A DNA stretch of 64,000 nt from Clostridia bacterium (GTDB lineage: Bacteria > Bacillota > Clostridia > Christensenellales > QALW01). Under the pieces are notes generated by a model. It was given only the letters and a program-made list of their open reading frames with translations. It was not told where the DNA came from and did not search any database. This document shows positions 3,774-42,430 of the stretch, one piece after another (the first letter of the stretch is position 1; every line of letters begins with the position of its first letter). Where the stretch lies: positions 45,507 to 109,506 of the forward strand of contig JAZRYL010000042.1 of the NCBI GenBank assembly GCA_045600705.1, in the 5' to 3' direction. The position numbers and the translations under genes were made by a program.

Positions 3774-4460
3774 ATGAACAACAATCTTTTCAAAAAGGCG
3801 CTTGCCGAATTCGTCGGCACGTTCGTACTTGTGTTCTTCGCTTGCGGAGTCGCAGCATTTACCGGCGGAAATCTTGTTCCCACCGCACTCACATTCGGAC
3901 TTGTTATCGTCGCAATGGCTTATTCTGTGGGAAAAGTTTCGGGATGCCACATTAACCCTGCGGTTTCCATTGCTTGTCTTTTTGACGGCAGAATGAATGT
4001 TACCGAATTCATTGTTTATGTAGTTTCACAAATCGTGGGCGCAGTAGTAGGCGGAATCGCTATTTTCGGAATTGCCAAAATGGGCGGTCTTACTTTGGCA
4101 GGCGACGCTTGTAACGCAGTTCTTGCACAAAATGCAGGCGGCTACGTTGGTGCAATTTTGACTGAAATCATTCTTACCTGTGTGTTCACATACGTTATTC
4201 TTAACGTTACGGATGACAGCGGAGTTGCAGGCAAAAAAGCAGGAATCATCATCGGTCTTACGCTTACGCTTGTTCACCTTTTGGGAATCAACCTTACCGG
4301 AACAAGTGTAAATCCCGCAAGAAGCATCGGAACAGCAGTTGCAGCACTTATTTTTAACGGCAACGGAACACCTCTTGGCCAGGTTTGGGTATTTATTGTT
4401 GCTCCTCTTGCAGGCGGAATTTTGTCCGTAATGCTTTATAAGGCACTTAATAAAAAGTAA
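3774..4460 (+). CDS. aqpZ: MIP-family aquaporin (aquaporin Z-like water channel).
   Basis: The 228-aa product has two NPA boxes (HINPAVS and VNPARS) in a 6-TM topology. A good RBS (aggagt) lies upstream of the ATG. Confidence 0.85.
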   Translation: MNNNLFKKALAEFVGTFVLVFFACGVAAFTGGNLVPTALTFGLVIVAMAYSVGKVSGCHINPAVSIACLFDGRMNVTEFIVYVVSQIVGAVVGGIAIFGIAKMGGLTLAGDACNAVLAQNAGGYVGAILTEIILTCVFTYVILNVTDDSGVAGKKAGIIIGLTLTLVHLLGINLTGTSVNPARSIGTAVAALIFNGNGTPLGQVWVFIVAPLAGGILSVMLYKALNKK

Positions 4461-4599
4461 TTTACGGTACTTAAAAGTCGTCATTGCAACAGAAAGCGGA
4501 ACAGATAAACGAAATAATCCAAAAATAAACAGTCCGGAAAAAATTTTTCGGACTGTTTTTATACATTTGTTTAGTGAATTTTCAGGGATAACGATTGAA

Positions 4600-4860
4600 C
4601 TGTTACCGCAAAGCGAAATAAAAGTTCTTTTGCTTACTTTTCTTACAAAATGAATTTATTGTCAAAGAGTTGTACCTGTTATTATAATCTGCCGAGGGGT
4701 TTTTGAGAAAAGATTGAACTGTTACCGCAAAGCGAGGTAAAAGTTCTTTTGCTTACTTTTCTTACAAGAAAAGTAAGGAAGCAGTTCTTTTTGTTTCCTT
4801 TTCTTTCAAGAAAAGGAAAGAAACCGTTTTCTTTCCCAAAAGAAAAGTATGGTAATCAAT
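4600..4860. repeat. Cluster of palindromic intergenic repeat units (REP/MITE-like family). Other copies lie at 970-1035, 42290-42430 and 42660-42830.
   Basis: Repeated modules of the form ccgcaaagcgRRnnaagttcttttgcttacttttcttacaagaaaagtaag, with the imperfect palindrome CTTTTCTT-N-AAGAAAAG. The copy at 970-1035 matches at more than 85% in reverse orientation. Confidence 0.7.
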
Positions 4861-6040
4861 GGTGGAACAGACGCATACCGGTAAATGCCATTGCCATACC
4901 GTACTTATCGGCACATTCGATAACAAGGTCGTCACGAATAGAGCCGCCCGGCTCGGCAATATATTTTACACCGCTTCGATTTGCACGTTCGATGTTGTCG
5001 CTGAAGGGGAAGAATGCGTCAGAACCGAGAGCAACACCGTCAAAGGAATCAAGATACAACCTTATTTCCTCACTTGTAAGCGGTTCGGGGCGACGGGTAA
5101 AGTATTTCTGCCATATTCCGTTGGCGCAAACGTCTTCCTCGTTTTTGTTAATGTAGCCGTCAATAACGTTGTCACGGTCGGGACGTCCGAGAGTAGGCAG
5201 GAAAGGAAGTTGAAGAACTTTTTCGTGCATACGCAGGAACCATGTATCAGCCTTGCTTCCCGCAAGACGGGTGCAGTGAATTCGTGACTGCTGACCTGCG
5301 CCGACGCCGATAGCCTGACCGTCGTAAGCGTAGCACACGGAATTCGACTGAGTATATTTAAGAACAATAAGCGAAATTATCAAGTCACGAACGGCACTTT
5401 CGGGCAAAGACCTGTTTTCCGTCACAATGTTGGAAAGCAGTTCACGACCGATTTTGAAATTGTTTCTGCCCTGCTCAAAGGTGATTCCGAAAACCTGCTT
5501 GCGTTCCACAGGTTCGGGAACGTAGTTTTCGTCAATTTTAACAATATTGTAGTTGCCCTTGCGCTTGGTTTTAAGAATTTCAAGTGCTTCGTCGGTGTAT
5601 CCGGGTGCAATTATTCCGTCGGAAACCTCTCGCTTGAGCATAAGCGCAGTAGTCTTGTCACAAACGTCCGAAAGTGCCACCCAGTCGCCGAACGAACACA
5701 TACGGTCGGTGCCTCTTGCACGGGCATAAGCGCAGGCAATGGGGGAGTCGTCAAGACCTTCCACATCGTCAACAAAGCACGCTTTTTTCAGTTTTTCGGG
5801 AAGTTTTATTCCCACCGCCGCAGAAGTAGGACTAACATGCTTGAATGATGCCGCCGCAGGCAAATTAAGTGCTTCTTTAAGTTCTTTTACAAGCTGCCAC
5901 GAGTTGAACGCATCTAAAAAATTGATATATCCCGGCTTTCCGCACAGAATTTCAATGGGAAGGTCACTTCCGTCCTGCATAAAGATTCTTGACGGCTTTT
6001 GATTGGGATTGCAGCCGTATTTAAGTTCAAATTCGTTCAT
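4856..6040 (-). CDS. purH: AICAR transformylase (PurH C-terminal AICARFT domain only). It lacks the MGS-like IMP cyclohydrolase domain.
   Basis: The 394-aa product has an LKYGCNPNQ motif (compare LRYGENPHQ) and a C-terminus ...AFTGMRLFHH typical of PurH (RHFRH tail). Confidence 0.8.
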   Translation of the reverse strand: MNEFELKYGCNPNQKPSRIFMQDGSDLPIEILCGKPGYINFLDAFNSWQLVKELKEALNLPAAASFKHVSPTSAAVGIKLPEKLKKACFVDDVEGLDDSPIACAYARARGTDRMCSFGDWVALSDVCDKTTALMLKREVSDGIIAPGYTDEALEILKTKRKGNYNIVKIDENYVPEPVERKQVFGITFEQGRNNFKIGRELLSNIVTENRSLPESAVRDLIISLIVLKYTQSNSVCYAYDGQAIGVGAGQQSRIHCTRLAGSKADTWFLRMHEKVLQLPFLPTLGRPDRDNVIDGYINKNEEDVCANGIWQKYFTRRPEPLTSEEIRLYLDSFDGVALGSDAFFPFSDNIERANRSGVKYIAEPGGSIRDDLVIECADKYGMAMAFTGMRLFHH

Positions 6041-6049
6041 ATTTTCACC

Positions 6050-6769
6050 TCATTTATTGGAATTTATCAGTCGGTTTTCTTCTTTTCCGCTTTCAAGGTC
6101 GGTGTAACGAACATAAAGCGAAATTCGGTTGTCGCGGTCAAGTGCATTCCATAACAAATCGGTAAAGTCGTCGATACTGTCGGGAATAGCCACACGTTCC
6201 GGCTCGCCCACAAAGGTGGGAAGGGGATTTCCGTCGCAAACGTAGGTATGAATAAAATGCCCGAGTCCGTTTATCGGCGCATAGGAAAAAGTAAATCTGT
6301 TGCACGCAGAACCGTTTTCGTCGGCACTTTTGAGAATACTCATTTCGTATGTGAAGTTATTTTCGGAAAAATCAAGTATTCCGCTTATTCTCGGAGTAAA
6401 ATTCGGGGCGTCGGGTTCAAATTCCCGTGAAACAAGTGAAGATGCAAAGGATTTTCCGCTTTTAATTCCCTCAAAAACCGTGTCGGTTTGATCACCGTTT
6501 GTCACTATCAGTTTGTTCCCGATTTTCTTTTGCGCAGGATAGATAATAAGGCTCGGATCTTCAACCTTGGATGCATCAAAAGGCTGAGTGTAAAGCACAC
6601 CGTCCTTTTCAACAAAAATGCGGTTGCGGCTGTTGGCACTTCTGCCCATAATAAAATACGCCGAAACGGCACTTTTTCCGTTCTGCGACTTGCCGATAAC
6701 GATGCCTCGCCCAACGTAACTGTTGTTGCGTATAAGTTCGCCGATGTTGTGAATTTCGTAAACGTTCAT
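6050..6769 (-). CDS. purO: PurO-type (archaeal-type) IMP cyclohydrolase.
   Basis: The listed ORF starts at 6943 but is better trimmed to the internal ATG at 6767-6769, which is preceded by aaaggaga and gives MNVYEIHNIGELI.... The start at 6943 would run through the riboswitch and its terminator. The family was assigned by recognition of PurO-like sequence. Confidence 0.6.
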   Translation of the reverse strand: MNVYEIHNIGELIRNNSYVGRGIVIGKSQNGKSAVSAYFIMGRSANSRNRIFVEKDGVLYTQPFDASKVEDPSLIIYPAQKKIGNKLIVTNGDQTDTVFEGIKSGKSFASSLVSREFEPDAPNFTPRISGILDFSENNFTYEMSILKSADENGSACNRFTFSYAPINGLGHFIHTYVCDGNPLPTFVGEPERVAIPDSIDDFTDLLWNALDRDNRISLYVRYTDLESGKEENRLINSNK

Positions 6770-6788
6770 ATTCTTTCTCCTTTTTTTT

Positions 6789-6952
6789 GAAAAATAAAAG
6801 GGCACAGATTTACATTGGCGTGACTTTAAGAATGTTACGCTAACGTAAAACTGTGCCCAGACGGTCGGCATATAAGGTTCCCGCTCCCATGCAGTTGCCT
6901 GCTTTGCGAATTTTTTTCGCATTTCCGTCAGTAACGGGGACACATAAAGAAT
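6789..6952 (-). ncRNA. ZTP (pfl-motif) riboswitch with a terminator expression platform, upstream of purO-purH.
   Basis: The minus-strand RNA reads GUCCCCGUUACUGACGGAAAU, then a P2 hairpin GCGAAaaaaaUUCGC, then CAUGGGAGCGGGAAC, a linker, and the conserved 3' pseudoknot strand CCGACCGUCUGGGCAC. The GGGCACAG...CUGUGCCC hairpin plus U-tract overlaps the pseudoknot strand. The genomic context (purH, fhs) is classic for ZTP. Confidence 0.6.
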
Positions 6953-7069
6953 AACACGGTAAATTGATTATGTCAATCAAATTAGTTCGTACCGCTTCGA
7001 ATAATACTCGAAATCGGCAGAACATACCTTATATTATATATAAGGCGAATTTGGACGGCTTTTGAAGAA

Positions 7070-9451
7070 TTATTTTTTCAAAAACGCATCAAGTTTTTCA
7101 AACTGTAATTCCGCTTTCTGCTTTTCAAAGGGCAGAACAAAGGGCGTCAAAGATTCAAGCACATCGCAAAATCCCGATGACTTGTAATTTTCCATTTGAG
7201 TAAATTCCACGGTGGACAGGTTGTAACCGAGGTCATCAAGAATGTGTCTTATTTTTGCGTTGTAAACCATCGGAAGCACTTTTTTGCCCATGTTAAGTCC
7301 GAGAATAACGGAATGAAGTCGTGTACCGATAATGTATTCCGACTGCGCAAGAACTTCAAGCACTTGGTCTTTCGTTTGGAACGAATAGCCCAACACATCG
7401 GTTTTTTCACGTTCGGAGTCGGACAATTCGGCTAAAATTCTGTCGATAAACGAGTTGTCACCCTCAAAAGAACAAAAACTGATAATGCTTGTTTTTCTGC
7501 CCGCCGCCACGGAAGTTTTAACGGTATTAACGAGGGCTTGCAGATATGCGGAAGCGTCGCTCTCGCTGATTTTTCTTGAAGGCAGGAAGGGGTCACACAC
7601 GGAAATGGCAAGACTGCCCGGAATTTCCGCTTTTTTCGGAATGTTGTAGGAGAACAAAAGGTCCGGAGCGCAGCGCACCTGCCTTAAATCCTTGAAAAGT
7701 TCCGCGGAATAGGTTTCACGGAAGCAGATGTCCTCGAATTTTTTGAACTGTTTTACCCACATCTGCTTGAATTCATCGGTTTCAAAGGTGCCGAAATTGC
7801 AGGAAACGGAGAAAAACGGCTTAAAAGGACGCTTTCTTCTTTTTCTGAGTTTGTAATCAAGCATATAGTCGCCGACCTGCTGATAAATCGAACCGCCCAA
7901 GTGCAGAGTTGCATCGCTTTTTGAGAGCAGGAAGTATTCAAACAGGTCACGGATACCGAACTTTTCGCCGAACTTGTTGAGTTTGGCAACAAAGCCGTCA
8001 CCGGCGTAGAAGAACTTTACGTTATCGAAACGGTTGGCAAAAGCGGAATAATCCCACCCGCAATAGAATATAAATAATGTGTCGGGGTAACGCTTAAGCA
8101 ATGTTTCAAAAAACAAATCATCACCTAAGTTCATGGCAAAGTAGCCGTAAAGCATAACGGTGCGCTTATATTTTCTGCCGTCCCTGCCACGGAGAAAAAG
8201 GAAGTGCTTTAAGTGCTTTATGGGCGAAAGAACCTTGCCGAACTTCGATTTAATACGAAAATCAAGAGTGCGGTGAAGCTGTGCGGTAACACTGTTCAGT
8301 TCGCCTAAGGTGCGGGACAGTTCGCCCGAAGTGCGTGAAAGTTCACCTTGAAGACGTGCAATTTCGTTATTTGCCGCATCTCGCTGAGTTTCGGCGATAG
8401 TGCGCAAATTTATTTGGTGAGTAAGGGTTGCGTTAAGTTCGTTTATTTCGGCAGCGTCGTACAGATATTTTGATGCCTCACGGTCGTAGAAGCCACGGAT
8501 ATCAAGACCGAATTTATCCCTTGCTATTTCAACATTGCGGTAATCTCTGAAAAGTTCGGAAAATTTCAAAATTCCGAGAATGCTGTTTTCCGGCATAAAA
8601 ATGAGTCCCTTTTCCAAAAGAAACGCTTTTTCAATTTCCGTTTCCGCATGGGTGTGTTCGCCCTTTAAGCGAAGTCTGTCGGAGAATGCTTCAAGAAACA
8701 GACCGTCGGGACAGTCGTTTATCATCGAATATATGATTTGCGCATATTCCACGTTGTGAACGTTCGTCTTTTTTTCGTTAAGTCCGCTGTTGTGAGTTTC
8801 AAGGGAACTTATACGGTATTTTGCCATAGGCTTTTCAAAAAGTTTTATGGGGTGCTTTATTACAAGCCGTGCCCAGTAATCGAAATCGTGAAGATAACAG
8901 TATGAGGGATAGTGAGGCCCTAATTCGTCAACGGCGGATTTGCGCATTACCGTTCCCGCATAGGAAAGATGGTTCGATGCATCGAAGAACAAACGGACAA
9001 AATCTGCTTGGGTTTCGGCGGAAACGTCAAAAACGTCCTCAAGCCACTTGTAACTTTCACCGGCAGGAGTTCCGTCTTCATTGACGATTACGGGCTTGAA
9101 AAAGCAGGCGGCACATTCGGGAACACCGTTAAGATAATTTACGGCGGTTTCGATAAGTTCCGGGTCCATAAGGTCGTCCGAATCTATGTGAGCGATAAAT
9201 TCTCCCCGTGCGTGGCTGAACGCCTCGTTGTTGGCATTTGAAATGTGACCGTTGCGGGGGAGTTCGTAAAGTTCTATGCGCCGGTCGGGGAAAGACTTTA
9301 CAATTTCGGCCGTGTTGTCGGCAGAACAGTCGTCCACCACGATGACCTGAAGATTAGTGTACGTCTGACCGCAAACCGATTTAAGGGTTTCACTGATAGT
9401 TTTTGATGCGTTGTACGCATTGATACATACGCTTACTAACTGTTCGTTCAT
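7070..9451 (-). CDS. Bifunctional polysaccharide-modifying enzyme with an N-terminal GT2 glycosyltransferase domain and a C-terminal polysaccharide pyruvyl transferase (CsaB/WcaK-like) domain.
   Basis: N-terminus VSVCINAYNASKTISETLKSV...VVDDCSADNT...DSDD (GT2 DxD), a central coiled coil with GELSRT repeats, and a C-terminus ...LHLGGSIYQ...RLHSVILGL typical of PS_pyruv_trans. Confidence 0.65.
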   Translation of the reverse strand: MNEQLVSVCINAYNASKTISETLKSVCGQTYTNLQVIVVDDCSADNTAEIVKSFPDRRIELYELPRNGHISNANNEAFSHARGEFIAHIDSDDLMDPELIETAVNYLNGVPECAACFFKPVIVNEDGTPAGESYKWLEDVFDVSAETQADFVRLFFDASNHLSYAGTVMRKSAVDELGPHYPSYCYLHDFDYWARLVIKHPIKLFEKPMAKYRISSLETHNSGLNEKKTNVHNVEYAQIIYSMINDCPDGLFLEAFSDRLRLKGEHTHAETEIEKAFLLEKGLIFMPENSILGILKFSELFRDYRNVEIARDKFGLDIRGFYDREASKYLYDAAEINELNATLTHQINLRTIAETQRDAANNEIARLQGELSRTSGELSRTLGELNSVTAQLHRTLDFRIKSKFGKVLSPIKHLKHFLFLRGRDGRKYKRTVMLYGYFAMNLGDDLFFETLLKRYPDTLFIFYCGWDYSAFANRFDNVKFFYAGDGFVAKLNKFGEKFGIRDLFEYFLLSKSDATLHLGGSIYQQVGDYMLDYKLRKRRKRPFKPFFSVSCNFGTFETDEFKQMWVKQFKKFEDICFRETYSAELFKDLRQVRCAPDLLFSYNIPKKAEIPGSLAISVCDPFLPSRKISESDASAYLQALVNTVKTSVAAGRKTSIISFCSFEGDNSFIDRILAELSDSEREKTDVLGYSFQTKDQVLEVLAQSEYIIGTRLHSVILGLNMGKKVLPMVYNAKIRHILDDLGYNLSTVEFTQMENYKSSGFCDVLESLTPFVLPFEKQKAELQFEKLDAFLKK

Positions 9452-9944
9452 AAATACCTCTCAATCATATACTGTTATGACAGTAAATATAATACCATAC
9501 ATTATATTATATGTAAACATCGTAGTGAAAAAAATATTTTTGTAACATTTTTTACTGCTTGGAACATATATATAGTATGGATGAACAGAAAAATGAATAT
9601 ATATTCACTATATACGCATTTTTTTGAAGACGTGCGGAACGAAAAACGAAAAAATTTTTAAAAAAAGTGTTTGACATAAAATGTACTATAGATATAATAT
9701 GTATATGTAGCTTGAATGCATCGTATTTGGTACGGAAAAGCATTTTTGTGATATAAGCGTATTCCGAAAAAAACGCTTCCACGATTTGCCAAAAACCCCG
9801 ATAAATAGGGCATTATGAACAAATTGTGAACAAAAAATATCTAAATTATTTACAAAAAAATAATTTGAATATTTTTTCAAAAAAATCGAAAAAAATGCTT
9901 GACAAGTATAAAAAACGATGATACAATTCAGGTACAAAATTTAA

Positions 9945-10072
9945 GAACATTGCCAAACCCGTGGAAACATGGGGACGGAAAGCTCAGGAGTCTAAAGCAT
10001 AATATGCAATGACAGTCCGGTTGCAAAATAAAGATTTTTTGCACGGGCTGCTTTTTTATTGCCCGTGGAGAG
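9945..10072 (+). ncRNA. Candidate c-di-GMP-I (GEMM) riboswitch in the 5' leader of the gene at 10082.
   Basis: UUGCCAAACC, then a CCCGUG-GAAA-CAUGGG GNRA hairpin, then GGGACGGAAAGCU, then a hairpin containing UCUAAAGC. This matches the GEMM-I signature (GGCAAACC...GNRA...GGGACGCAAAGCC...CCUAAA), followed by the stable hairpin cacgggc...gcccgtg just before the RBS. Confidence 0.55.
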
Positions 10073-10081
10073 GAGACCATT

Positions 10082-11275
10082 ATGAAAAAATTTGTATCTT
10101 TATTTCTTGCCTTAACGATGTTCGTAGCAGTATTCGCAACATTAGGTTTGACAGTAGGCGCTACTTCGGAAATTCAGTATTCCGATCACATGCAGGGCGC
10201 AACCCGTTATGAAATCACAGACAGCTCCATTGCTTGGGTTAAACAGGCAACCGGCGCTCTTATCTGGGTATACGGCGACGACACTCGCACAAAAGCAGAA
10301 ATCGTTGCTCAGGCTAAAAACGCAGACCCCTCACTTAAGAATGCTTGCAACGCATTTGAAGTTTTGAGAGGCGTTGGTATTAAGTACACACCCAATGCAA
10401 ACGGTTCAAAAACTAAGGTTACAGTTGCTGAAGAAGACGGAAAACTTTATATGATTCTCGGCGGAAACTACAGCCACTTCGTAAAAGGTGACGGCGGCAA
10501 AGCAGTTGCTCCCACACCTGTTCCTACAGCAGTTCCCACAGCAGCTCCTACAGCAGCTCCCACTGCTACACCTGCTCCCGGTACCACAGCAGAACCTACA
10601 GCAGTTCCCACTGCTACACCTGCTCCCACAGCAGCTCCCGTAGTTCCTGAAACTCCCGCTACCGGCGAAACAATCAACATCAGAATCGATACCGCTAAGA
10701 AAATGGCAGTTAGATTTGAAGACGGTAACGTTTATTACAACGGCGACCTTAAGGAAATCGAAATCGGTAAAGAATATCTTTTCCAGATCTGCTCAGTAAA
10801 CTGGGAAAACGGCATCTACGACGATGAAGGCAACGGCCTTTGCGGTACAGTTGTTTACAGAATGAAAGTCGTTCATGAAAAAGAATTCAAGACCATCAGA
10901 GAAATCGCTCTTCAGAACCCCGAAAGATACACCGTTAAGGGTATGGATATCATCGATAACCTTAACAAAGTAATCATCATTAACTGCGACGCTGAAAACT
11001 TCCATCTTGAAACAGACGTTAACAACTTCTTCATGGCTTATCGCTTCCACTTTGAAAAGGGCGACTACAACAAGCAGACCGGTATCAAGAACGTTGTTAA
11101 TCCTACCGAAAGCCTTTCGGTAAACCTTCCTCTTGGAACAACAGTTACTGCTGATGCTTATGCAAAGTTCTCAAAGATTGCTTCTGCTGCTATCCTTGTT
11201 GAAAACAACAACGGCACAGGCGTTTATGAAAACGTATATCTTACAAGCGTAAACGATTATACTTGGAACTACTAA
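10082..11275 (+). CDS. Secreted protein with a Pro/Thr/Ala-rich linker. Function unknown; possibly surface-associated or an adhesin.
   Basis: Signal peptide MKKFVSLFLALTMFVAVFATLG; a PT-rich low-complexity linker (APTPVPTAVPTAAPTAAPTATPAP...); RBS ggagag upstream. Confidence 0.6.
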   Translation: MKKFVSLFLALTMFVAVFATLGLTVGATSEIQYSDHMQGATRYEITDSSIAWVKQATGALIWVYGDDTRTKAEIVAQAKNADPSLKNACNAFEVLRGVGIKYTPNANGSKTKVTVAEEDGKLYMILGGNYSHFVKGDGGKAVAPTPVPTAVPTAAPTAAPTATPAPGTTAEPTAVPTATPAPTAAPVVPETPATGETINIRIDTAKKMAVRFEDGNVYYNGDLKEIEIGKEYLFQICSVNWENGIYDDEGNGLCGTVVYRMKVVHEKEFKTIREIALQNPERYTVKGMDIIDNLNKVIIINCDAENFHLETDVNNFFMAYRFHFEKGDYNKQTGIKNVVNPTESLSVNLPLGTTVTADAYAKFSKIASAAILVENNNGTGVYENVYLTSVNDYTWNY

Positions 11276-13024: not shown

Positions 13025-13047
13025 TAAAAAAGCCGTTTTTCAAAAAA

Positions 13048-13167
13048 AGTAAAAAGGCAAAACACGTGAAAGCGTGTGACGCAAAGTTGTGAATCTAAAA
13101 CCGAAAGGTCATGATAGTCAAACTGCACTAATAAAGGGTTACTATACTTTATTTGTGCAGTTTTTTC
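13048..13167 (+). ncRNA. Candidate c-di-GMP-I (GEMM) riboswitch with an intrinsic terminator, upstream of the operon that starts at 13203.
   Basis: GGCAAAAC, then an ACACGU-GAAA-GCGUGU GNRA hairpin, then GACGCAAAGUU, then a hairpin with AUCUAAAACC. This is followed by the terminator ctgcac...gtgcag plus tttttt at 13123-13167. Confidence 0.55.
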
Positions 13168-13202: not shown

Positions 13203-13874
13203 ATGGAAAAAGCAAAACTGTTTTTTCAAAAGGCATTCAAAAGAACAAAAGCAATCGGATTGGTATTGGTGCTTGTGATGCTTACGGGAATGCTTTGTTC
13301 GTGTAACAATGTAAATCCCAATGTCGGCACCGATAAAGAAGAAACGAACAAAAACAATTACACTTCGTCCACATCAAAGGTTGATAAATCGGTTCCGGAA
13401 TATGTCAACGGCGACGACCTTGCCAACCGCAGTTACGAATTAAGTTTTTTGCTTGCGCAAAAGAAGTTCAATTCGCCCAATGAAATAGGTGTAAATGCAC
13501 TTGTACAGTATTCGTTCTGTCACCTTTACTACGATAATTTGATTGAAATTCCCACCAACGGAACTCAGTTGAGAACGGCTACCGTGGATGAAATGGCGGA
13601 TGAAATCAAAAAGGAATTCGGTGACGTTACCACGGATATAAAGACTTCCGATTTGTACAACGGAGCGAAAAACTGCTTCGAAATGTGGGAACCGCCCTAC
13701 GGCAGAGATATTTACTACGATGTTGAAGTATCGGGACAGGGAAACGACACATACAAAGCGAACACAACGTTCTATACGGATTCAACAAAAGAAGAAATTC
13801 TCGGAAGAACGATTTTAACGGTTAAAGACGTAAATCAAAAAATGGTAATACAAAGATTAACATCAAGTAATTAA
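13203..13874 (+). CDS. Putative secreted protein or lipoprotein of unknown function.
   Basis: N-terminus MEKAKLFFQKAFKRTKAIGLVLVLVMLTGMLCSC with Cys shortly after the hydrophobic segment. It is the first gene downstream of riboswitch candidate #2. Confidence 0.5.
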   Translation: MEKAKLFFQKAFKRTKAIGLVLVLVMLTGMLCSCNNVNPNVGTDKEETNKNNYTSSTSKVDKSVPEYVNGDDLANRSYELSFLLAQKKFNSPNEIGVNALVQYSFCHLYYDNLIEIPTNGTQLRTATVDEMADEIKKEFGDVTTDIKTSDLYNGAKNCFEMWEPPYGRDIYYDVEVSGQGNDTYKANTTFYTDSTKEEILGRTILTVKDVNQKMVIQRLTSSN

Positions 13875-26648: not shown

Positions 26649-29600
26649 TTAGTCTGCTGTGTATTCAACAGTGGAAGCGGTTTTATATGCACATCCTGCA
26701 AGGTTGGCGGTAACTGTTTCGTCGTTCAAACAAGATACTGACATTGTTCCGCTGAACGTTGTGCCGGCGAACATATATCTTATTCCCATTGTATCATACG
26801 ATACTTTTTCGCCTAAACTGTCGTATGCACCTGCGGTGAGCGATCCTACAAGATTTGAGAAATAGCATTCACGGGGAACTGTAAGTGTTATGACCGTTTC
26901 TTCACCGGGGGCAAGGTTTACGTTACATCTTGCAGAAGTGATGGGGGTAAGATTTTCATCGGCATAAGCCACGTGACCCCAGTTGTAATTCAGTGATACC
27001 CATGTAACAGTTGCCGTAGTGTTGTTCTTGATAAGAAGTTGAACTTCTTTTTCAGTTTCGCCGTCTTCAAAAACAAGATCGGAGAAAGGCAGACTTGATG
27101 CGTTAGCACCCGACGTGCTGACAATGTAAAGATTTTGTCCAGCAAGCGTGTAACGGGCACAAGCCGTGTTTTCACAGAAAAGGCACTGTGCATCGTTATA
27201 ATCAATGATGCTTTGGAGATTTTCGGGCAACAGAGTAGCACGGGTAACATTTTCGAATGTATCTTGTGCGCTCATTGAACCTGTTGCGGATAAGCCAACT
27301 GTTACGGCAGGGTCGTTAAGACAGGTAACGTACAGACTTCCGTCAGCGGTATTGCTAAATCCGAATTTAATTCCGAAATCTTTATAAGAAATCTGCTCGC
27401 CTAAACTGTCGTACGCACCTTGAGTGAGCTGCCCCGGCTGATTTGAGAAATAACACATTTTGGGAACGGTCAATTCGATAACCGCATATTCACCGGGGAG
27501 AATACGTTCTGATGAGTACGTGCCGGATATACGGACAAGTTGGTCAGCAGAGGGATATGCCAAATATCCCCAGTTATAGCAAAGGGTGGCTCCCGTAAGA
27601 GTTGCATTTGTGTCGTTGTAAACAAGGAAGCGGTAAAGTTTACTGTCTTCGTTACCCATATCTGAGAATTTGAATGGTGTAACTCTGCTTGAACCGGATT
27701 TTGATACAACGTAATTTCTTGTTCCTGCAAGAGTAATCTTGGCAACATCCACGTTGTGGTGACCCGTGGCGGGAAGTGAAACAATGTTTTCTGTTACTCC
27801 TTCGCAATGGACACATTTGTCACCGTATCTAAAACCGTCAATGCAATCGGCAATGCTTCTTGTTCCGATATAGCCAATCCGTTCAAGTTCTTGAACAAGG
27901 TCTTCGGGTACTGAGAGTTTATTCGATATCAGGCTTGCATTAACATGTCTGCCGCCGTTGGCACCGGCCTGCGATAATGCATAATTGAGTGTGGCTTCGT
28001 TAAGTCCGGAAACGTAAAGAGTGCCGTCGTTTACTGCACCGTCAAACATAAACCTTAATCCTACGGAATGATAGTCAATAAGTTGACCTAAACTGTCAGA
28101 ACTTCCGTCTGTTGCGTTGTTGCGCAAATTGGAGTAAATTGCTTGGCGGGGCAAGGTAAGAGTGATTTCAATTCCCTGGCCGGGCATAAGCTCAAGTGAT
28201 TTGGCCGTATTGGGAATACGTGTAAGATTGTCAGCATCGGGATAAGCATAGAAGCCCCAATTATAGTTAAGCGTAACGCTTGTAAGTTTTTTGTTTGTGC
28301 CGTTGTACAGATACAAGTGAATTTCTTTTTCGTTTTCATCACCCATATCCACGAACTTAAAGGGTGAATATTCAACTCCGGGACGGGTAACTAAGTATGA
28401 ACCGTTAATGTCGTTAAAACCAACGGTTTCAAATGACTTGTGACTGAGTGCCGGAACAATAGTATCACTTGTGATGCGGCCGCATCGTGTGCAGGCGGAA
28501 ATTTCAAATCCATCAGCGTCGCAGGTGGGTGCAATGTAGGAAGTAACCTTATCGTTATGACCGAGGGAAGCAATCCTCTCCGTTTTAGTAGCGTTACAAC
28601 GGGTGCAGGCAAAATATTTTGTTCCTTCTGCTTCGCAGGTAGCGGGAGCGGTGGAGGTAAGAACAAAATCATGACCTAATGCGCTATGCATCGTCTGACC
28701 GCAGATTTCGCATACCTGAGCGGTAAGGCAAGTTGCTTCAGCACCGGGCGTATGCGCACCGTAGTCTTCAAGGGCAGTTTGAGTCATTTCAGCGGAGCAG
28801 TGTACGCAAAGATTGGAAGAATGACCTTTGTGCATACAGTCGTGTTCAAAAAGTCCGATCTTTGAAAAACCGCAGGCGGTAAGTCCGTCATTGACATAGT
28901 TGGGAACTGCCGTGTTCTGCAACAGCGCAACGGGTTCGTCGTTGAAGCAAGCCGTTTTTGAAAGGCAGGCATTGATGTTTCCTGCTTCCACACCGTCGGA
29001 ATTTATGCAGGTAATGTAAACGTTTCCGGTGGCATTGCCGCCGCCGAACATAATACGAAGTCCCAAATCCTCATAGGAAACTATCTCGCCGTTGCTGTCG
29101 GTAGAACCGTCGGTAAGGTAGCCCGATTTATTGGACATTATGCAATTCTTGGGAACGGTCAGTGTAACTTGGATGCCGTTGTGAGGTGCAAGAGAGCCGT
29201 TCCAACAGGTGTTTGGAATACGTGTAAGTGTTCCGTTGGCAGGATAAGCGTAGTATCCCCAACGGTAGCCGAGTGAGAATGTTGTAATAGTCTTATCCGT
29301 ATCATTGAAGAGATAAAAACTTACTTGTTTGGAATCTCCGCTCATACTCATTGTCTTAAAGGGAGTGAGTTTATCTGCACCGGCATTTGTAACGACGTAA
29401 TAGTAAGCACCGTTTACGGAAATGCGAACAGTTTCTGTTTCGGCGTGATTCAAAGCACTGATGTTGTCGGTTTCAACGATTCGGCAGCGAGTACAGATGT
29501 GATCTACTTTTCCTGCTTCGGTGCAGGTAGCGGGAACAGAACTGTTTTCAAAATCGTGACCTAAAGCGTCATTGATGATAGCATGACAATTTCTGCAAAC

Positions 29601-32600
29601 TTGCGGTGCCGTGCAGGTTGCGTTAGCTCCGCCTTGATGCGGAAGCAGGGGTGAAGCGGTAAGTGAACCGGATATTATACTGTTGCAGTCCGCACAGTAG
29701 GTGTATGCGCCGTGACCGCGACGTGCGCAGGTGGAATTCATTGAACCAAATATAACGGTATTTGAATGTGCGCAGGAAGCATTGGCACGACAAACGTAAA
29801 GCGCCATATCGCAGGTTTCTTTTTCAGTAACATTCCACGTTCCGGAGGACGAGGCGGTGAAACTGCCGGCCGAATCAATTTGACCTGTAACGGGATTAAA
29901 CCATATATAATTATATGAAGCATTAGCTGTTAAGTGACCTAAAACACCGGTTTTTACAGCATTTTCGGGTGTTGCGTTAGGTGTTCTTGCAATAGTAGTA
30001 TCACTGAAATTGTAGAAGTAAACTACTGCCTTGCTTGAGTCATTCGCAGAAGCGCAAATGGGGAATACTCCGTTGTTTTCGGGCGTAAAGTATTCCGTAT
30101 AGTCAAAGCGAGGAACAAGGTCGTACCAATTTCCAACCAAGTTGGACATAAATTCGTGCAGATAGCCTAACTGATAAGTGCTTGGATATTCAAGTGAACT
30201 TTCCCACGTTGCGGCAACTTTATCTGCGGCGGTAATAATATCTACACCGTCGGTACTGTCTTCGTCTTCACCGTAGGAACTTAAATAGCACCATGTGTCC
30301 TGACCGCCCCATGCGGCACCGTACATTCCGCTGAGGTATGCCATCCAGCCCTGAACTCTTGCACCGAAATTTTTTGTCCAAAGGTAACAGTATTTTCCCT
30401 CGTAAAGAACTACCGGTTTACCTTGACCGTTCTGCCAATAATCCATAGGTGCAGTTTGATTTATTTTTACATTGTAACTTTGTGACCACTGTGAAGCATA
30501 CCAAGTATGCGCTGAACAGTCACGGAAAGCAGAATCTGAAGCGGCGGTACTGCCGGAATATTCCTGATGAGCGGTCAACGGATGCGAGTAGGCATCGTGA
30601 TGAGCGATACGTTCAGCAACATAAACGTAGGGGTTGTTTACGTATGACCATTCCATGTGACTGTTATATTCACTTCTATCCCAATAGAAGTCGTTGTCAA
30701 CCTCTTGACCGAGAGTCCAGAAAACGGGATAAGCACCGTAACGGGCAACCCAGTATCTTGAAATAAGGTCAAGTGCTTCTTTTGCCGAATCGGATAAATC
30801 GTACACGGTAACGTTTGAATGATTTTCGTTTGCTGTGCCTACGGGGGTATTTGACCATCCGCCGTTATTATTGATAAATGATTTCATATCCGACGGGAAG
30901 AAGAATTCCGCATTTGAATGGCACAATCCGTAGGAGGCGATTATGTCGAATTTTTCGTCATTAACGTGGAAACCGTCAATATCTTCTTGGGTGATGCCGT
31001 TTTTTGCATTGAAGCCTGCACCAATCGGTTCGGACTGAATAACGGTGAAGTTCTGCTGAACACGTTTTTTTACTACTGTTTTAATGTTTGAAACGGGTTC
31101 GGAGCCCATTCCCCAATGGGTATCGCCGAGATAGAAGAACGGTGTTCCGTCTGCATAGGTGAAATATTTTGTTGATCCGGTTTTTACGAATCCGTGACGG
31201 TAAATATCAAGAGTTCCTGCGTAAGGTGTGCAGATAACTGTTCCGGTCTGATTGTGAAGCCCCCCATCAAGGGTGTTTGAACAATCGGTGTAATAAGTCC
31301 ATGTTCCGGGTTCGGTGCAAACAAAACGGGCACGCCAAATATTGCTTCCGTCCCAGAATGCGGGAACGGTGTAGGTGACTGTTCCGTTTGTAAGGACAAG
31401 GTCGAGAGTTACGTCCTTATAGGGGTTCGAGTAAGTGTTTTTTGCAACAAAGACTGCCTCGTTGAGTGTCCATGTGGAAGCACGGCCTACTTCGTGAGCA
31501 TAGTCGCTGCCGTCGTCAATAAGAATAATGCGGAAATTGTCTATTTTTATATTTGTTACGTCGGCAGCAATCATGTGAAAACCGAATTTCCACCAACCCG
31601 AAGCGTTAACGTCGGCATCGGAAACGGTAAAAGTGTCTTCGTAAGAATACCACTGATTACCTGCCTTTGTGCCTGCACCCTTTAAGCCTCTGTAGTTTGT
31701 AAAATTACAGAAAGAATACTGTTTATCAGTACGGATAACGCAGGAGAAAGGCTGTTCGGCGGTAGTATTGTTCGCTTTGTAGTCAAATGAAATCTTATAT
31801 GTACCTGCACGGTCAATTCTTGTTTTAATATTTATTGCAGCGGTGTGGAATGAATAACTGCTTCCTGAATTTTTTGTAAATTTAAAACAGTTGCCGTCCT
31901 TGCCGTCAGCAGAAATGGCCGTTGTGACTGAACCGAATGATTCCGTCCACATAGTGTCGTTTACGTTTGAAACATTATCAAAGGAAGAAGAACTTTCGGG
32001 AATTATATTTGCCGATTCGGAAGCGATAACCTTTACATTGTCAATGTAAATTTCCGAAACGGAGTTGTGAATTTGATGTAAGCAAAGATCCCACTTATTT
32101 TTGGATGCAAAATCTGCTTCGGTGAAAGTGAGAGTAGCGGTGTATGTGTACCATACGCCCGATGAACCGAATTTTGCCTGAGACAGTTCACCGTAATAAT
32201 TATCACCGTAAAGTCTTGCAAATGAATACTGCTTGTCGGTACGAATAAGTACTGTGAACGGCTGACATTCGGATGAAGAGGTTACCGAGTAGTCGAACAG
32301 AAGTGTGTATGTACCGGGGTGATCTATATAAGGAGCAAGATTTAATGCGGCTGAAGCATACGATCCGCCGGAAGCGGGTTTTACCACTTTGAGGCATTTT
32401 CCGGGGTTGCCTAAATCAACTACCGACATGTTAGGCGAACCGTAGTGGTTACCCCAACCTGCATCGATAGGAGAAACTGCACTGTCAAAATTACTTGCTT
32501 TGTCCGGAATAATATTTCCGGCACGGCAGATAAGGCTGTTTTCTGTTGCCGATACATTAAGCGCAAGCATTGGAAATACAGACAGAATCATTGTAAGGCT

Positions 32601-32639
32601 AATCAGAATACTCAAAAATTTAGTATGTGTTTTTTTCAT
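26649..32639 (-). CDS. Giant secreted multidomain carbohydrate-active protein (1996 aa): two N-terminal CBM-like domains, a DUF4038/GH140-like TIM-barrel domain, Cys-rich modules, and four tandem C-terminal domains of about 170 aa.
   Basis: Signal peptide MKKTHTKFLSILISLTMILSVFPMLALNVSA. Central domain with FFYLGDTHW, WTLGQEVDN (clan-A acid/base-like) and VLYEGKY motifs. Repeated Cys modules (ALGHDF..PATC..G.....CTRC). Four repeats of the ...NYNWG(F/Y)(L/Y)AYP...TRIPNT... domain. Confidence 0.6.
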   Translation of the reverse strand: MKKTHTKFLSILISLTMILSVFPMLALNVSATENSLICRAGNIIPDKASNFDSAVSPIDAGWGNHYGSPNMSVVDLGNPGKCLKVVKPASGGSYASAALNLAPYIDHPGTYTLLFDYSVTSSSECQPFTVLIRTDKQYSFARLYGDNYYGELSQAKFGSSGVWYTYTATLTFTEADFASKNKWDLCLHQIHNSVSEIYIDNVKVIASESANIIPESSSSFDNVSNVNDTMWTESFGSVTTAISADGKDGNCFKFTKNSGSSYSFHTAAINIKTRIDRAGTYKISFDYKANNTTAEQPFSCVIRTDKQYSFCNFTNYRGLKGAGTKAGNQWYSYEDTFTVSDADVNASGWWKFGFHMIAADVTNIKIDNFRIILIDDGSDYAHEVGRASTWTLNEAVFVAKNTYSNPYKDVTLDLVLTNGTVTYTVPAFWDGSNIWRARFVCTEPGTWTYYTDCSNTLDGGLHNQTGTVICTPYAGTLDIYRHGFVKTGSTKYFTYADGTPFFYLGDTHWGMGSEPVSNIKTVVKKRVQQNFTVIQSEPIGAGFNAKNGITQEDIDGFHVNDEKFDIIASYGLCHSNAEFFFPSDMKSFINNNGGWSNTPVGTANENHSNVTVYDLSDSAKEALDLISRYWVARYGAYPVFWTLGQEVDNDFYWDRSEYNSHMEWSYVNNPYVYVAERIAHHDAYSHPLTAHQEYSGSTAASDSAFRDCSAHTWYASQWSQSYNVKINQTAPMDYWQNGQGKPVVLYEGKYCYLWTKNFGARVQGWMAYLSGMYGAAWGGQDTWCYLSSYGEDEDSTDGVDIITAADKVAATWESSLEYPSTYQLGYLHEFMSNLVGNWYDLVPRFDYTEYFTPENNGVFPICASANDSSKAVVYFYNFSDTTIARTPNATPENAVKTGVLGHLTANASYNYIWFNPVTGQIDSAGSFTASSSGTWNVTEKETCDMALYVCRANASCAHSNTVIFGSMNSTCARRGHGAYTYCADCNSIISGSLTASPLLPHQGGANATCTAPQVCRNCHAIINDALGHDFENSSVPATCTEAGKVDHICTRCRIVETDNISALNHAETETVRISVNGAYYYVVTNAGADKLTPFKTMSMSGDSKQVSFYLFNDTDKTITTFSLGYRWGYYAYPANGTLTRIPNTCWNGSLAPHNGIQVTLTVPKNCIMSNKSGYLTDGSTDSNGEIVSYEDLGLRIMFGGGNATGNVYITCINSDGVEAGNINACLSKTACFNDEPVALLQNTAVPNYVNDGLTACGFSKIGLFEHDCMHKGHSSNLCVHCSAEMTQTALEDYGAHTPGAEATCLTAQVCEICGQTMHSALGHDFVLTSTAPATCEAEGTKYFACTRCNATKTERIASLGHNDKVTSYIAPTCDADGFEISACTRCGRITSDTIVPALSHKSFETVGFNDINGSYLVTRPGVEYSPFKFVDMGDENEKEIHLYLYNGTNKKLTSVTLNYNWGFYAYPDADNLTRIPNTAKSLELMPGQGIEITLTLPRQAIYSNLRNNATDGSSDSLGQLIDYHSVGLRFMFDGAVNDGTLYVSGLNEATLNYALSQAGANGGRHVNASLISNKLSVPEDLVQELERIGYIGTRSIADCIDGFRYGDKCVHCEGVTENIVSLPATGHHNVDVAKITLAGTRNYVVSKSGSSRVTPFKFSDMGNEDSKLYRFLVYNDTNATLTGATLCYNWGYLAYPSADQLVRISGTYSSERILPGEYAVIELTVPKMCYFSNQPGQLTQGAYDSLGEQISYKDFGIKFGFSNTADGSLYVTCLNDPAVTVGLSATGSMSAQDTFENVTRATLLPENLQSIIDYNDAQCLFCENTACARYTLAGQNLYIVSTSGANASSLPFSDLVFEDGETEKEVQLLIKNNTTATVTWVSLNYNWGHVAYADENLTPITSARCNVNLAPGEETVITLTVPRECYFSNLVGSLTAGAYDSLGEKVSYDTMGIRYMFAGTTFSGTMSVSCLNDETVTANLAGCAYKTASTVEYTAD

Positions 32640-33030: not shown

Positions 33031-34707
33031 ATGAACGATTACAAAAGAACTGTTCTCATAGTGGACGATAACGAGTTTAACCGTGATTTTTTAACAGAAT
33101 TACTTTCAGATGAGTATTTTGTTCTTAAAGCGGAAAACGGTCAAGTCGCTTTTGATTTGCTGAAAAGCGACGACGGAATGATTTCTGCGGTTTTGCTCGA
33201 TATGCACATGCCGGTTATGGACGGAGCGACGTTTCTCGACGCCGCCGGCAAGGATGCCAAAATTTCCAAGATACCCGTAATAATAATGACCACATCAGAC
33301 GATATTAAAACTGAAGTAAGTTGGCTTAACAAAGGCGCAGTGGACTTTATTCCCAAGCCGTTTCATCCCGATGCGGTAAAAGCACGACTTAAAAATGCCA
33401 TCAATCTCCGTGAATCGGTGGCAATGCTTTCCGCCACGGAATTTGACGAACTCACGGGTTTTTACACCCGAGGCGCATTCTTGAAGCACGCAGAAATTCT
33501 GCTGCAAAAGCGGCCGGACGTTCGTTTTGACCTTGTGACCGCAACTATATTCGACTTTGACCAGATCAGTTACAAATACGGCTCGGACATGGCGACTGAG
33601 GTGGTTCGCTGCATCGGTCAGAACGTGCTTGAAGGAGACACTGAGTATTGCATTACGGGAAGATTCGATAACGAACAGTTTGCTGCACTGATTCAGGTGG
33701 ATGCCGACGGAGCAGACGGCATGGAACAAATCAAAAAGACACAAATTGCGATAGAAACTAACTCGCCGGTGAAGGACGTTAAACTTAAATATGCGATATA
33801 CGAAAACGTTGAGCATAACATTCCCGTCTACGTTTTGTGCAGCCGTGCGTTCAATGCGCTTCAGCAAATCAGACACAGTTACGGCGTGACCTGTGCCAAG
33901 TATTCGCCGGAAGTCCAAAAAGAAATAGACATTCTTAACGAATTGGAAGACGGCATGGTCAAAGCACTTGAAGAAAAGCAGTTTGAAGTGTATTATCAGC
34001 CGAAATTCTACGTTGCGGACGGAAAAGACCGCATTGCGGGTGCGGAAGCGCTTGTCAGATGGGTGCATCCTGACAAGGGATTTATCAAGCCGGACGTGTT
34101 TATCGGTATGTTCGAAAAAAACGGATTTATCAGCAAACTTGACAGATATATGCTTGAAAACGTTTGCCGTGACATTAAGGAATGGCGTGAACAGGGTATT
34201 CCCGTGTTTCCCGTTTCGGTTAATTTGTCCCGTGTTGACTTTTCAATAGCCGACCTTGCTCAGCGTGCCGAGGAAATAGTGGATTCTTATGGAATTCCTC
34301 ACGAACTTATCCATTTTGAAGTTACCGAATCTGCATTTACCAAGCATGACGGTTTGCTGAAAACGATAATTCATCAGTTACATTCGGCAGGCTTTTCCAT
34401 TGAACTTGACGATTTCGGAACGGGATATTCTTCGCTTTCGTCGTTGCAGAGCCTTGACCTTGACATGGTAAAACTCGATATGAGCCTTATTCGTGAGGAC
34501 GACCCGAATTCCGGCAAAAGCGTGCTTGAATTGGCACATAACATTGTGAATATGATGAAAATGAAAACAGTTCAGGAGGGCGTGGAAACACAAAGCGAAC
34601 TTGAACGTGTTCGAGATTTGGGGTGTGCGTTCGTGCAGGGATTTTATTTTTCCAAGCCCCTTTGCAAAAAAGATTTTGTTACATTTATTAAAAATATGAA
34701 AGTATAA
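33031..34707 (+). CDS. Response-regulator c-di-GMP phosphodiesterase: REC, degenerate GGDEF, and EAL domains.
   Basis: REC (VLIVDDNEF...LLDMHMPVMDG); a GGDEF-like region with RFDNEQF in place of GGDEF; an EAL domain with YYQPKF, EALVRW, DDFGTGYSS and KLDMSLI motifs. Confidence 0.8.
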   Translation: MNDYKRTVLIVDDNEFNRDFLTELLSDEYFVLKAENGQVAFDLLKSDDGMISAVLLDMHMPVMDGATFLDAAGKDAKISKIPVIIMTTSDDIKTEVSWLNKGAVDFIPKPFHPDAVKARLKNAINLRESVAMLSATEFDELTGFYTRGAFLKHAEILLQKRPDVRFDLVTATIFDFDQISYKYGSDMATEVVRCIGQNVLEGDTEYCITGRFDNEQFAALIQVDADGADGMEQIKKTQIAIETNSPVKDVKLKYAIYENVEHNIPVYVLCSRAFNALQQIRHSYGVTCAKYSPEVQKEIDILNELEDGMVKALEEKQFEVYYQPKFYVADGKDRIAGAEALVRWVHPDKGFIKPDVFIGMFEKNGFISKLDRYMLENVCRDIKEWREQGIPVFPVSVNLSRVDFSIADLAQRAEEIVDSYGIPHELIHFEVTESAFTKHDGLLKTIIHQLHSAGFSIELDDFGTGYSSLSSLQSLDLDMVKLDMSLIREDDPNSGKSVLELAHNIVNMMKMKTVQEGVETQSELERVRDLGCAFVQGFYFSKPLCKKDFVTFIKNMKV

Positions 34708-42290: not shown

Positions 42291-42430
42291 ACTTACTTTT
42301 TTCTGCTTACTTTTTCTTGAAAGAAAAGGAAGCGAAAAGAACTTTTATCTCACTTCGTGACAACTTACTTTTCTTATAAGAAAAGTAAGCAAAAGAATTT
42401 TTATCTCACTTCGTGGCAATAGAATAAATT
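42290..42430. repeat. Two tandem copies of the palindromic intergenic repeat family (variant with a ...tctcacttcgtgRcaa tail).
   Basis: cttactttttcttgaaagaaaaggaagcgaaaagaacttttatctcacttcgtgacaac, then cttacttttcttataagaaaagtaagcaaaagaatttttatctcacttcgtggcaatag, which is about 80% identical to the 970-1035 copy. Confidence 0.65.

Follow-up and report, generated by a model that had tools for sequence, protein, structure and literature searches.

The question raised by this locus is whether a short RNA leader that stands alone before two late purine genes is a working riboswitch, and how it came to stand there. The DNA in question, referred to below as the window, is the whole 64,000-nucleotide (nt) stretch from a Clostridia bacterium (assembly GCA_045600705.1, contig JAZRYL010000042.1, positions 45,507 to 109,506). 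On its minus strand a leader resembling the ZTP riboswitch precedes the genes purO and purV, whose products would convert 5-aminoimidazole-4-carboxamide ribonucleotide (ZMP, for which AICAR is another name and of which ZTP is the triphosphate) to inosine monophosphate (IMP). We put at roughly 85% the probability that these two genes form a single operon under a ZTP-class switch that turns transcription ON. The evidence is that the RNA and both proteins belong to the expected families, that P3 of the aptamer and the terminator exclude each other, that promoter and ribosome-binding motifs are present, and that related Clostridia conserve the design.

The aptamer

The leader matches the Rfam covariance model of the ZMP/ZTP riboswitch, or pfl motif (RF01750), at 6848-6945 (-) over the full length of the model (positions 1-86 of 86), scoring 47.4 bits where the gathering score is 39. 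The match has an E-value of 1.3e-4 in a search of the whole 64-kb window and 2.8e-5 in a search of its first 14 kb. A scan of the whole window with Rfam 15 at gathering thresholds returned three matches, this one among them, and a clade-specific covariance model (R1) scores the aptamer at 51.3 bits. An earlier note, made from the letters of this DNA, had read the hallmarks of the family in the minus-strand leader; all of the motifs that it quoted are present, and the RNA is a member of the family. The parts of the aptamer are as follows.

6848..6945, minus strand: ZMP/ZTP riboswitch aptamer (pfl motif), by RF01750 and clade model R1
6943-6934 with 6884-6875, minus strand: P1
6934-6925, minus strand: conserved stretch UUACUGACGG, read in the sequence
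6931-6930 with 6888-6887, minus strand: CU paired with GG
6929-6925 with 6864-6860, minus strand: pseudoknot, GACGG with CCGUC, fully complementary
6920-6906, minus strand: inserted hairpin GCGAA-AAAAA-UUCGC (GCGAAAAAAAUUCGC), between the 5' strand of the pseudoknot and P2
6902-6891, minus strand: P2 hairpin GCAG-GCAA-CUGC, strands 6902-6899 with 6894-6891
6888-6882, minus strand: GGGAGCG
6870-6867 with 6857-6854, minus strand: P3
6868-6853, minus strand: 3' strand CCGACCGUCUGGGCAC

The nucleotides that are invariant in the family (ACUGACGG, GGGAGC(G) and GCCGACCGUCUGGGC) are all intact. P1 keeps eight of its ten pairs and is non-canonical at two positions, while P2, P3 and the pseudoknot are perfect. 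The aptamer adjoins the AICAR-to-IMP genes on their upstream side, which is the kind of purine gene association expected of RF01750 and which agrees with the published list of genes associated with pfl/ZTP RNAs (PMC2864571). Sub-threshold Rfam matches near the locus, to two plant microRNA families and to RefA1 (E = 0.35-0.77), were set aside as chance.

The promoter, the terminator and the proposed switch

The aptamer is flanked by a promoter-like site and by a terminator, the latter of which would make up the expression platform.

6976-6948, minus strand: promoter-like site with TTGACA (-35), a 17-nt spacer and a TG-extended TATTCT (-10), from a consensus scan
6790..6858, minus strand: intrinsic terminator with 5' arm GGGCACAG at 6858-6851, 3' arm CUGUGCCC at 6807-6800 and an inner extended stem, followed by UUUUAUUUUU at 6799-6790

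The promoter-like site, which is identified by its match to the consensus, agrees with it at 10 of 12 positions and has the TG in addition. Since this sigma-70-like promoter lies directly upstream, the aptamer begins at, or a few bases from, the likely start of the transcript. The minimum-free-energy fold of the leader contains the long terminator hairpin (z = -4.5 relative to shuffled sequences), and the hairpin, folded alone from the 3' part of the leader, has a predicted free energy of -30.1 kcal/mol. The segment GGGCAC is common to the 5' arm of the terminator and the 3' strand of P3, and P3 (with the pseudoknot) and the terminator are therefore mutually exclusive. The embedding of the 3' pseudoknot strand in a terminator stem, which had been proposed from the letters, is thus recovered in the fold as an overlap of P3 with the terminator, and the U-run follows.

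The same arrangement occurs in related loci. These were drawn mainly from a comparison set of 80 purO loci (denoted by L numbers), all from Clostridia of the gut and rumen, represented by metagenome-assembled genomes or isolates. The -35 box and the TG/-10 region of the window have aligned counterparts in the L002 and L082 leaders, and like terminators, with a 5' arm that starts at the GGGC of the aptamer 3' end, are present in L002 and L082 and in two further metagenome contigs, L086 and L087. The terminator stem of L082 carries a compensatory change (GGGCGCAG/CUGCGC, compared to GGGCACAG/CUGUGCCC in the window). The terminator loop of the window is about 20 nt longer than those of L002 and L082, an enlargement seen in the window only. 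An ON-switch design of this kind, with a terminator and the 3' part of the aptamer in competition, has been described for pfl RNAs (PMC2864571), and ZMP/ZTP has been validated as the ligand of this riboswitch class (PMC7266159).

In the mechanism that we propose, transcription would start just downstream of the promoter-like site. When 10-formyltetrahydrofolate (10-formyl-THF) is short, or when the influx of ZMP exceeds its use, ZMP/ZTP would accumulate and bind the aptamer. The ligand would lock P3 and the GACGG/CCGUC pseudoknot, holding GGGCAC in P3 so that the terminator could not nucleate, and RNA polymerase would read through into purO and purV. PurV would then formylate ZMP with 10-formyl-THF, and PurO would cyclise the resulting formyl-AICAR (FAICAR) to IMP. 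Without ligand, the terminator of about -30 kcal/mol would form and transcription would end at the U-run.

Upstream of the riboswitch promoter, at 7070-9451 (-), lies a gene for a 793-amino acid (aa) fusion of a family-2 glycosyltransferase with a polysaccharide pyruvyl transferase, the stop codon of which is about 95 nt from the riboswitch -35 box. A terminator scan of the minus strand found no terminator-like site between this gene and the leader, and some read-through into the leader is therefore possible.

Structural support in the clade and the inserted hairpin

Support for the secondary structure was sought in 16 distinct clade aptamers, which were reduced to 70-nt cores by cutting out the variable unpaired linker and the inserted hairpin of the window and were then realigned. 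The model-made alignment A4, which mishandled lineage-specific insertions, was not used for the pair counts. Standard pairs occupy 90.3% of the cells in this alignment, compared to 37-45% after a shift of the partners by 1-3 columns. Nine of the 12 pairs of P1 change on both sides. P2 shows changes on both sides at two of its four pairs, a count that is circular because the P2 strands were selected for pairing ability. The 5-bp pseudoknot is paired in 16/16 sequences and is invariant, and the three core G-C pairs of P3 are formed in all 16, save for one G-U. Compared to the Rfam consensus pseudoknot GGCGG/CCGCC, the GACGG/CCGUC of the clade represents a compensatory change from G-C to A-U.

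Several of the observations weigh against a working switch. The pseudoknot and the P3 core hardly vary within the clade, and therefore neither adds covariation evidence. The aptamer of the window is the lowest-scoring of the clade members measured with the Rfam model (47.4 bits, compared to 54.9-66.7 bits), a deficit that is attributable to the inserted hairpin, the longer terminator loop and the two non-canonical positions in P1. The 15-nt hairpin, which cmscan aligns as an insertion of 17 nt and which has a predicted fold of 5-6 bp, sits beside the pseudoknot strand and lengthens the junction between that strand and P2 to 22 nt, compared to 4-8 nt in 15 relatives. It is found in the window only, and in none of about 20 relatives, the 15 aligned ones and L086 and L087 included. 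Together with the irregularities in P1, it could impair the folding of the aptamer.

The low score and the unique insertion would both fit a decaying relic, in which the hairpin and the P1 mismatches have abolished binding, the leader acts as a constitutive attenuator or leaky terminator, and purO-purV does not respond to ZTP. The invariant nucleotides are nevertheless all in place, as are most of P1 and the whole of P2, P3 and the pseudoknot. Being a hairpin that is complete in itself, and sitting in a junction whose length varies, the insertion can bulge out harmlessly; we expect it to be tolerated. A constitutive terminator of -30 kcal/mol before two essential pathway genes would, moreover, face counter-selection. 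Because all of the invariant nucleotides are intact, a working switch is rated much likelier than a relic, which we consider improbable. As a naturally occurring hairpin beside the pseudoknot strand, the insertion offers a ready test of the tolerance of the ZTP aptamer junction.

The putatively regulated genes

The leader is followed on the minus strand by two genes and a candidate transcript end.

6050..6769, minus strand: purO-like IMP cyclohydrolase gene, 239 aa, with ribosome-binding site GGAG at 6780-6777, ATG at 6769-6767 and stop codon TGA at 6052-6050
4856..6040, minus strand: purV, AICAR formyltransferase without the IMPCH/MGS domain, 394 aa, with its ATG 9 nt past the purO stop codon and GAGGTG before the ATG
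4814..4837, minus strand: terminator-like hairpin with a 10-bp stem and a T-rich tail, 19 nt past the purV stop codon, from a terminator scan

The 239-aa product matches PF07826 with 204.5 bits (gathering score 28.1) over profile positions 1-189 of 192, which bears out its identification as a PurO-type protein. The ribosome-binding site and the ATG come after the leader U-run. A longer open reading frame (ORF) of 297 aa, which begins at a GTG and runs through the riboswitch, is ruled out, since purN ends 2-3 nt ahead of the purO ATG in operon-type relatives. The start at 6769-6767, which the earlier note had preferred to the over-extended frame, stands on this position of the purN end, on the GGAG upstream and on the N-terminus MNVY..., which is kept in 80/80 related loci. 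The gain for annotation is that the start codon of purO is fixed and that the 5' untranslated region is marked as riboswitch instead of as coding sequence.

The relationship of the window PurO to the archaeal enzyme is detectable in its N-terminal part. Searches with phmmer match it to the archaeal PurO structures 2NTK (E = 1.9e-7) and 1KUU (E ~1e-7) over residues 7-136 only, with about 30% identity, and its R..RS, NG..TDT and TPRI motifs align with 2NTK. The substrate-contacting residues of M. thermautotrophicus PurO number 14; in the alignment of this part to 1KUU/2NTK, Arg5, Arg25, Ser26 and Arg30 are kept, Ser24 is replaced by Gly, and Tyr56 stands opposite a Leu, which has a Ser beside it at a gap of one residue. 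The same replacements of Ser24 and Tyr56 have been reported for bacterial PurOs (PMC6486802), and by its sequence the window protein is assigned to the distinct bacterial branch described in that work. The PurO homologues at hand are at least 73% identical and give a shallow alignment only.

The 394-aa product of purV matches the model for stand-alone AICAR formyltransferase (NF005492) from end to end, with 673.2 bits (cut-off 415; positions 1-390 of 390), and PF01808 with 187.5 bits. Of the model for bifunctional purH (TIGR00355) it spans positions 207-511 only, and it starts at the equivalent of residue 203 of human ATIC, where the transformylase domain begins. The neighbour of purO is therefore a PurH without its MGS-like cyclohydrolase domain, as had been proposed. 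Neither an IMPCH/MGS domain, nor another pur gene, nor a his gene was found within the 64-kb window by Pfam on 39 ORFs and by tblastn with E. coli PurH.

The closest structural counterparts of PurV are eukaryotic. Cryptococcus ATIC (residues 217-605) matches the window protein with 460 bits and 55% identity over 387 columns, and human ATIC with 451 bits, compared to only 76-103 bits for bacterial PurH structures. E. coli PurH is 28% identical to it over the first 264 residues and 57% identical over the last 60. For residues 265-334, E. coli PurH, with 8 residues at this place, offers no counterpart, but ATIC aligns with them throughout, and they therefore constitute an insertion common to PurV and ATIC. 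PurV and ATIC share an identical SFKHVSP segment (human Lys267/His268) and an identical RLFHH (Arg589) at the C-terminus, and Arg208/Tyr209 appear as Lys/Tyr; the catalytic Lys-His and the residues that contact AICAR follow the list given for PurH1 (PMC3261824). Judged by these comparisons, the transformylase is eukaryote-like (ATIC), far from bacterial PurH and not archaeal-like. No discussion of the closeness of bacterial PurV to eukaryotic ATIC was found in the literature searched.

These results qualify the description of the pair as an archaeal solution in a bacterium. The architecture is indeed that of a PurO with a separate transformylase, but it is not new in bacteria (PMC6486802), the PurO falls under the archaeal cut-offs given below, and the transformylase resembles ATIC.

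The hairpin at 4837-4814 is likely to be the end of the purO-purV transcript. It sits inside a block of small repeats. Two 59-nt repeat copies lie 119 nt apart just 3' of purV, accompanied by related AT-rich palindromes, where the chance expectation is 0. A small dispersed intergenic repeat is found at 975-1038, 4590-4852 and 42364-42389; it contains the 26-nt palindrome CTTACTTTTCTTACAAGAAAAGTAAG, often beside TTGAACTGTTACCGCAAAGCGA.

Gene order in relatives

The pair of genes is widespread. Bacterial purO and purV were described in 2019, Clostridia included, with the bacterial PurO proteins forming a clade of their own (Cruz et al., PMC6486802). Their presence has been put at "a tiny fraction" of bacteria, 22/1,266 genomes, in the statement quoted in PMC6797443. 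In fact they are very common in gut and rumen Clostridia: at least 555 genomes encode a PurO relative in a scan of species-representative genomes, and the protein database holds more than 8,000 near relatives (protein clusters) of the bacterial PurO family, under the NCBI name "IMP cyclohydrolase".

Among the 80 loci of the comparison set, purV follows purO in 78, and the remaining two stop at a contig edge. In 77 of the 80, purN lies directly before purO and purD (at times glyA and then purD) after purV. In the classic pur operons of Gram-positive bacteria this slot between purN and purD belongs to purH. Among the closest PurO relatives, at about 80% identity, the order is purE-purC-purF-purM-(PF01226 transporter)-purN-purO-purV-purD-purL.

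This context bears on whether the bacterial PF07826 protein is an IMP cyclohydrolase at all. The protein might instead have another role connected with AICAR or folate, the cyclisation of FAICAR falling to a purH elsewhere or to an enzyme that has escaped recognition. The window PurO lies far under the archaeal equivalog cut-offs (TIGR01922, 57.6 compared to 158.35 bits; NF003167, 64.3 compared to 150), these models match its residues 18-136 only, and the phmmer alignment to 2NTK is likewise confined to part of the protein. The archaeal members are the only PurO enzymes with an assay in the literature searched (PMC6797443), which yielded none for a bacterial member. Set against this, the gene always stands beside one for a transformylase-only protein and occupies the purH position in the 77 genomes noted above, in operons that otherwise hold purE, C, F, M, N, D and L. 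Active-site positions of bacterial PurO have been reported as conserved, and purO/purV as anticorrelated with purH in bacteria (Cruz et al. 2019, PMC6486802); the aligned residues of the window protein follow that bacterial pattern. A role other than cyclohydrolase is thus very improbable. Control by ZTP, together with the fixed purH slot, provides independent support for the predicted role of bacterial PurO in the branch from ZMP to IMP.

The ZTP leader itself is found mostly at a distance from purO. In a search for the riboswitch in the first 20 loci with Rfam, the aptamer lies about 3.8 kb upstream of purO, at the head of the operon, in five, and directly before purO in one (L002). With the clade-specific covariance model an aptamer is detected in 21 loci as well as in the window, in every case on the strand of the pur genes, and at the operon head in all of the loci but L002; many of the loci without a match end short of the operon head within the 4-kb flank. 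The ZTP riboswitch thus usually stands at the head of the purO/purV-bearing pur operons of related Clostridia. A strict regular expression for the 3' strand, applied to the 400 nt upstream of purO, had made the riboswitch seem nearly absent from relatives; this impression was misleading, given the distance of the aptamer at the operon head.

One-carbon metabolism recurs in the neighbourhood of these genes. A PF01226 formate/nitrite-transporter gene stands between purM and purN in L081 (2968-3582), L082 (4272-4883), L083 (792-1403) and L084 (4790-5401), which suggests that the ZTP-led operons of the closest relatives regulate the uptake or export of formate together with purine synthesis. The glyA gene, for serine hydroxymethyltransferase, lies right after purV and before purD in L006, L028, L036, L054 and L077, and in L002 it lies at 6041-7276 and is followed by fhs. 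The placement of glyA (and of fhs in L002) ties one-carbon supply to the purO-purV transcription unit. In L017 a Clostridiales-1 RNA (RF01699, 93.6 bits) lies immediately after purV, at 5915-6075.

The detached layout and its proposed origin

The unusual feature of the window is that the leader directly adjoins purO. The leader also stands directly before purO in three further contigs, L002, L086 and L087; the last two were found by a bridging pattern, and their PurO proteins are about 69% identical to that of the window. In the window (64 kb), in L002 (8.7 kb) and in L086 (12.7 kb), the pair stands apart from every other pur gene. Such detachment is met again in divergent lineages, with PurO proteins that are 69-77% identical, but it is the minority arrangement.

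The leaders of the window and of L002, which lie before purO, are homologous from the -35 box to the U-run to the leader of L082, which lies before purE. The window and L002 therefore appear to carry a pur-operon leader fused directly to purO-purV. On this comparison the leader would be that of the pur operon of related Clostridia, now placed before purO-purV and detached from purE...purN and purD. The repeat block of the window, at the place that glyA holds in L002, may mark a rearrangement.

The detached pair with its own ZTP switch could in principle be a free-standing module for the disposal or recycling of ZMP, uncoupled from de novo purine synthesis, an idea that we regard as doubtful. 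If it were true, the module might serve AICAR from histidine biosynthesis, or salvage where purE...purN have been lost or are separately regulated, and the hairpin and longer terminator loop of the window might retune the kinetics of the switch.

The fhs gene of the window lies at 3534-1858, on the same strand as purO-purV and 1.3 kb downstream. It is separated from purV by a convergent aquaporin gene at 3774-4460 (+), it has a promoter-like site of its own at 3606-3578, and no ZTP aptamer was found upstream of it, even at Rfam E <= 1; glyA is absent from the locus. In L002 the order is ZTP-purO-purV-glyA-fhs, with all genes co-oriented and an fhs that is 92% identical to that of the window. 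The suggestion in the earlier note that fhs fits the logic of ZTP control is biologically sensible and is supported by this synteny. At the window locus, however, fhs would form a separate transcription unit, with a link to the riboswitch that is syntenic only. The strand and distance of fhs, the order in L002 and the standing of fhs as a classic ZTP-associated gene (PMC2864571) would favour read-through from purV and a single ZTP regulon unit, but the hairpin at 4837-4814, the convergent gene, the promoter-like site and the missing aptamer make this highly unlikely.

Other features of the window

Two c-di-GMP-I (cyclic diguanylate) riboswitches are present at 9942-10028 (+) and 13046-13130 (+), with 69.9 and 73.2 bits. 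The ORFs behind them (10082-11275 and 13203-13874) have no Pfam match; the cluster downstream contains genes for a GT2 glycosyltransferase and an HD_5 (HD-GYP-like) protein, along with several large ORFs that Pfam does not match. A REC-GGDEF-EAL protein is encoded at 33031-34707. Two ORFs are very large: 26649-32639 (-), with 1,996 aa and apiosidase-like and DUF5060 domains, and 51704-57958 (+), with 2,084 aa and a Listeria-Bacteroides repeat. Many of their neighbours have no Pfam match.

Comparison with known systems

The motif of the ZTP riboswitch class dates from 2010 and its ligand from 2015, and the connection of the class with the AICAR transformylase step is established. A full-text literature search for "ZTP riboswitch" together with "IMP cyclohydrolase" gave no match. 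The association of the riboswitch with PurO nevertheless follows from known facts and is common in the clade, and both of its parts were already known; some residual interest attaches only to the module's detachment, to the inserted hairpin and to the likeness of PurV to its eukaryotic counterpart.

Compared to the ZMP/ZTP riboswitches of C. beijerinckii (pfl) and Thermosinus carboxydivorans, the RNA of the window has the same P1/P2, P3, pseudoknot and conserved nucleotides, the same overlap of the terminator with the 3' part of the aptamer (ON logic), and the same position upstream of a ZMP-consuming enzyme. It differs in the GACGG/CCGUC pseudoknot of its clade, in place of GGCGG/CCGCC, in the hairpin and bigger terminator loop that are its own, and in the genes that it would regulate, which are purO and purV and not a bifunctional purH.

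The two proteins form the same pair, PF07826 with a transformylase-only partner in replacement of purH, that is known from the bacterial purV/purO systems (PMC6486802), and the active-site motifs of archaeal PurO (2NTK; TK0430) are kept within the aligned N-terminal part. In contrast to the archaeal proteins, the window PurO shows only the partial and distant similarity described above, below the equivalog cut-offs. The account of the bacterial pair in PMC6486802 makes no mention of a riboswitch, and the pair of the window is detached from other pur genes.

The nearest system with the full gene order is that of L082 (GCA_002315685.1), in which the ZTP leader heads purE-purC-purF-purM-transporter-purN-purO-purV-purD-purL. 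The window locus lacks purD and the upstream pur genes, and its leader abuts purO, as in L002, L086 and L087. The leader and purO-purV of the two systems are orthologous, with PurO proteins that are 80% identical.

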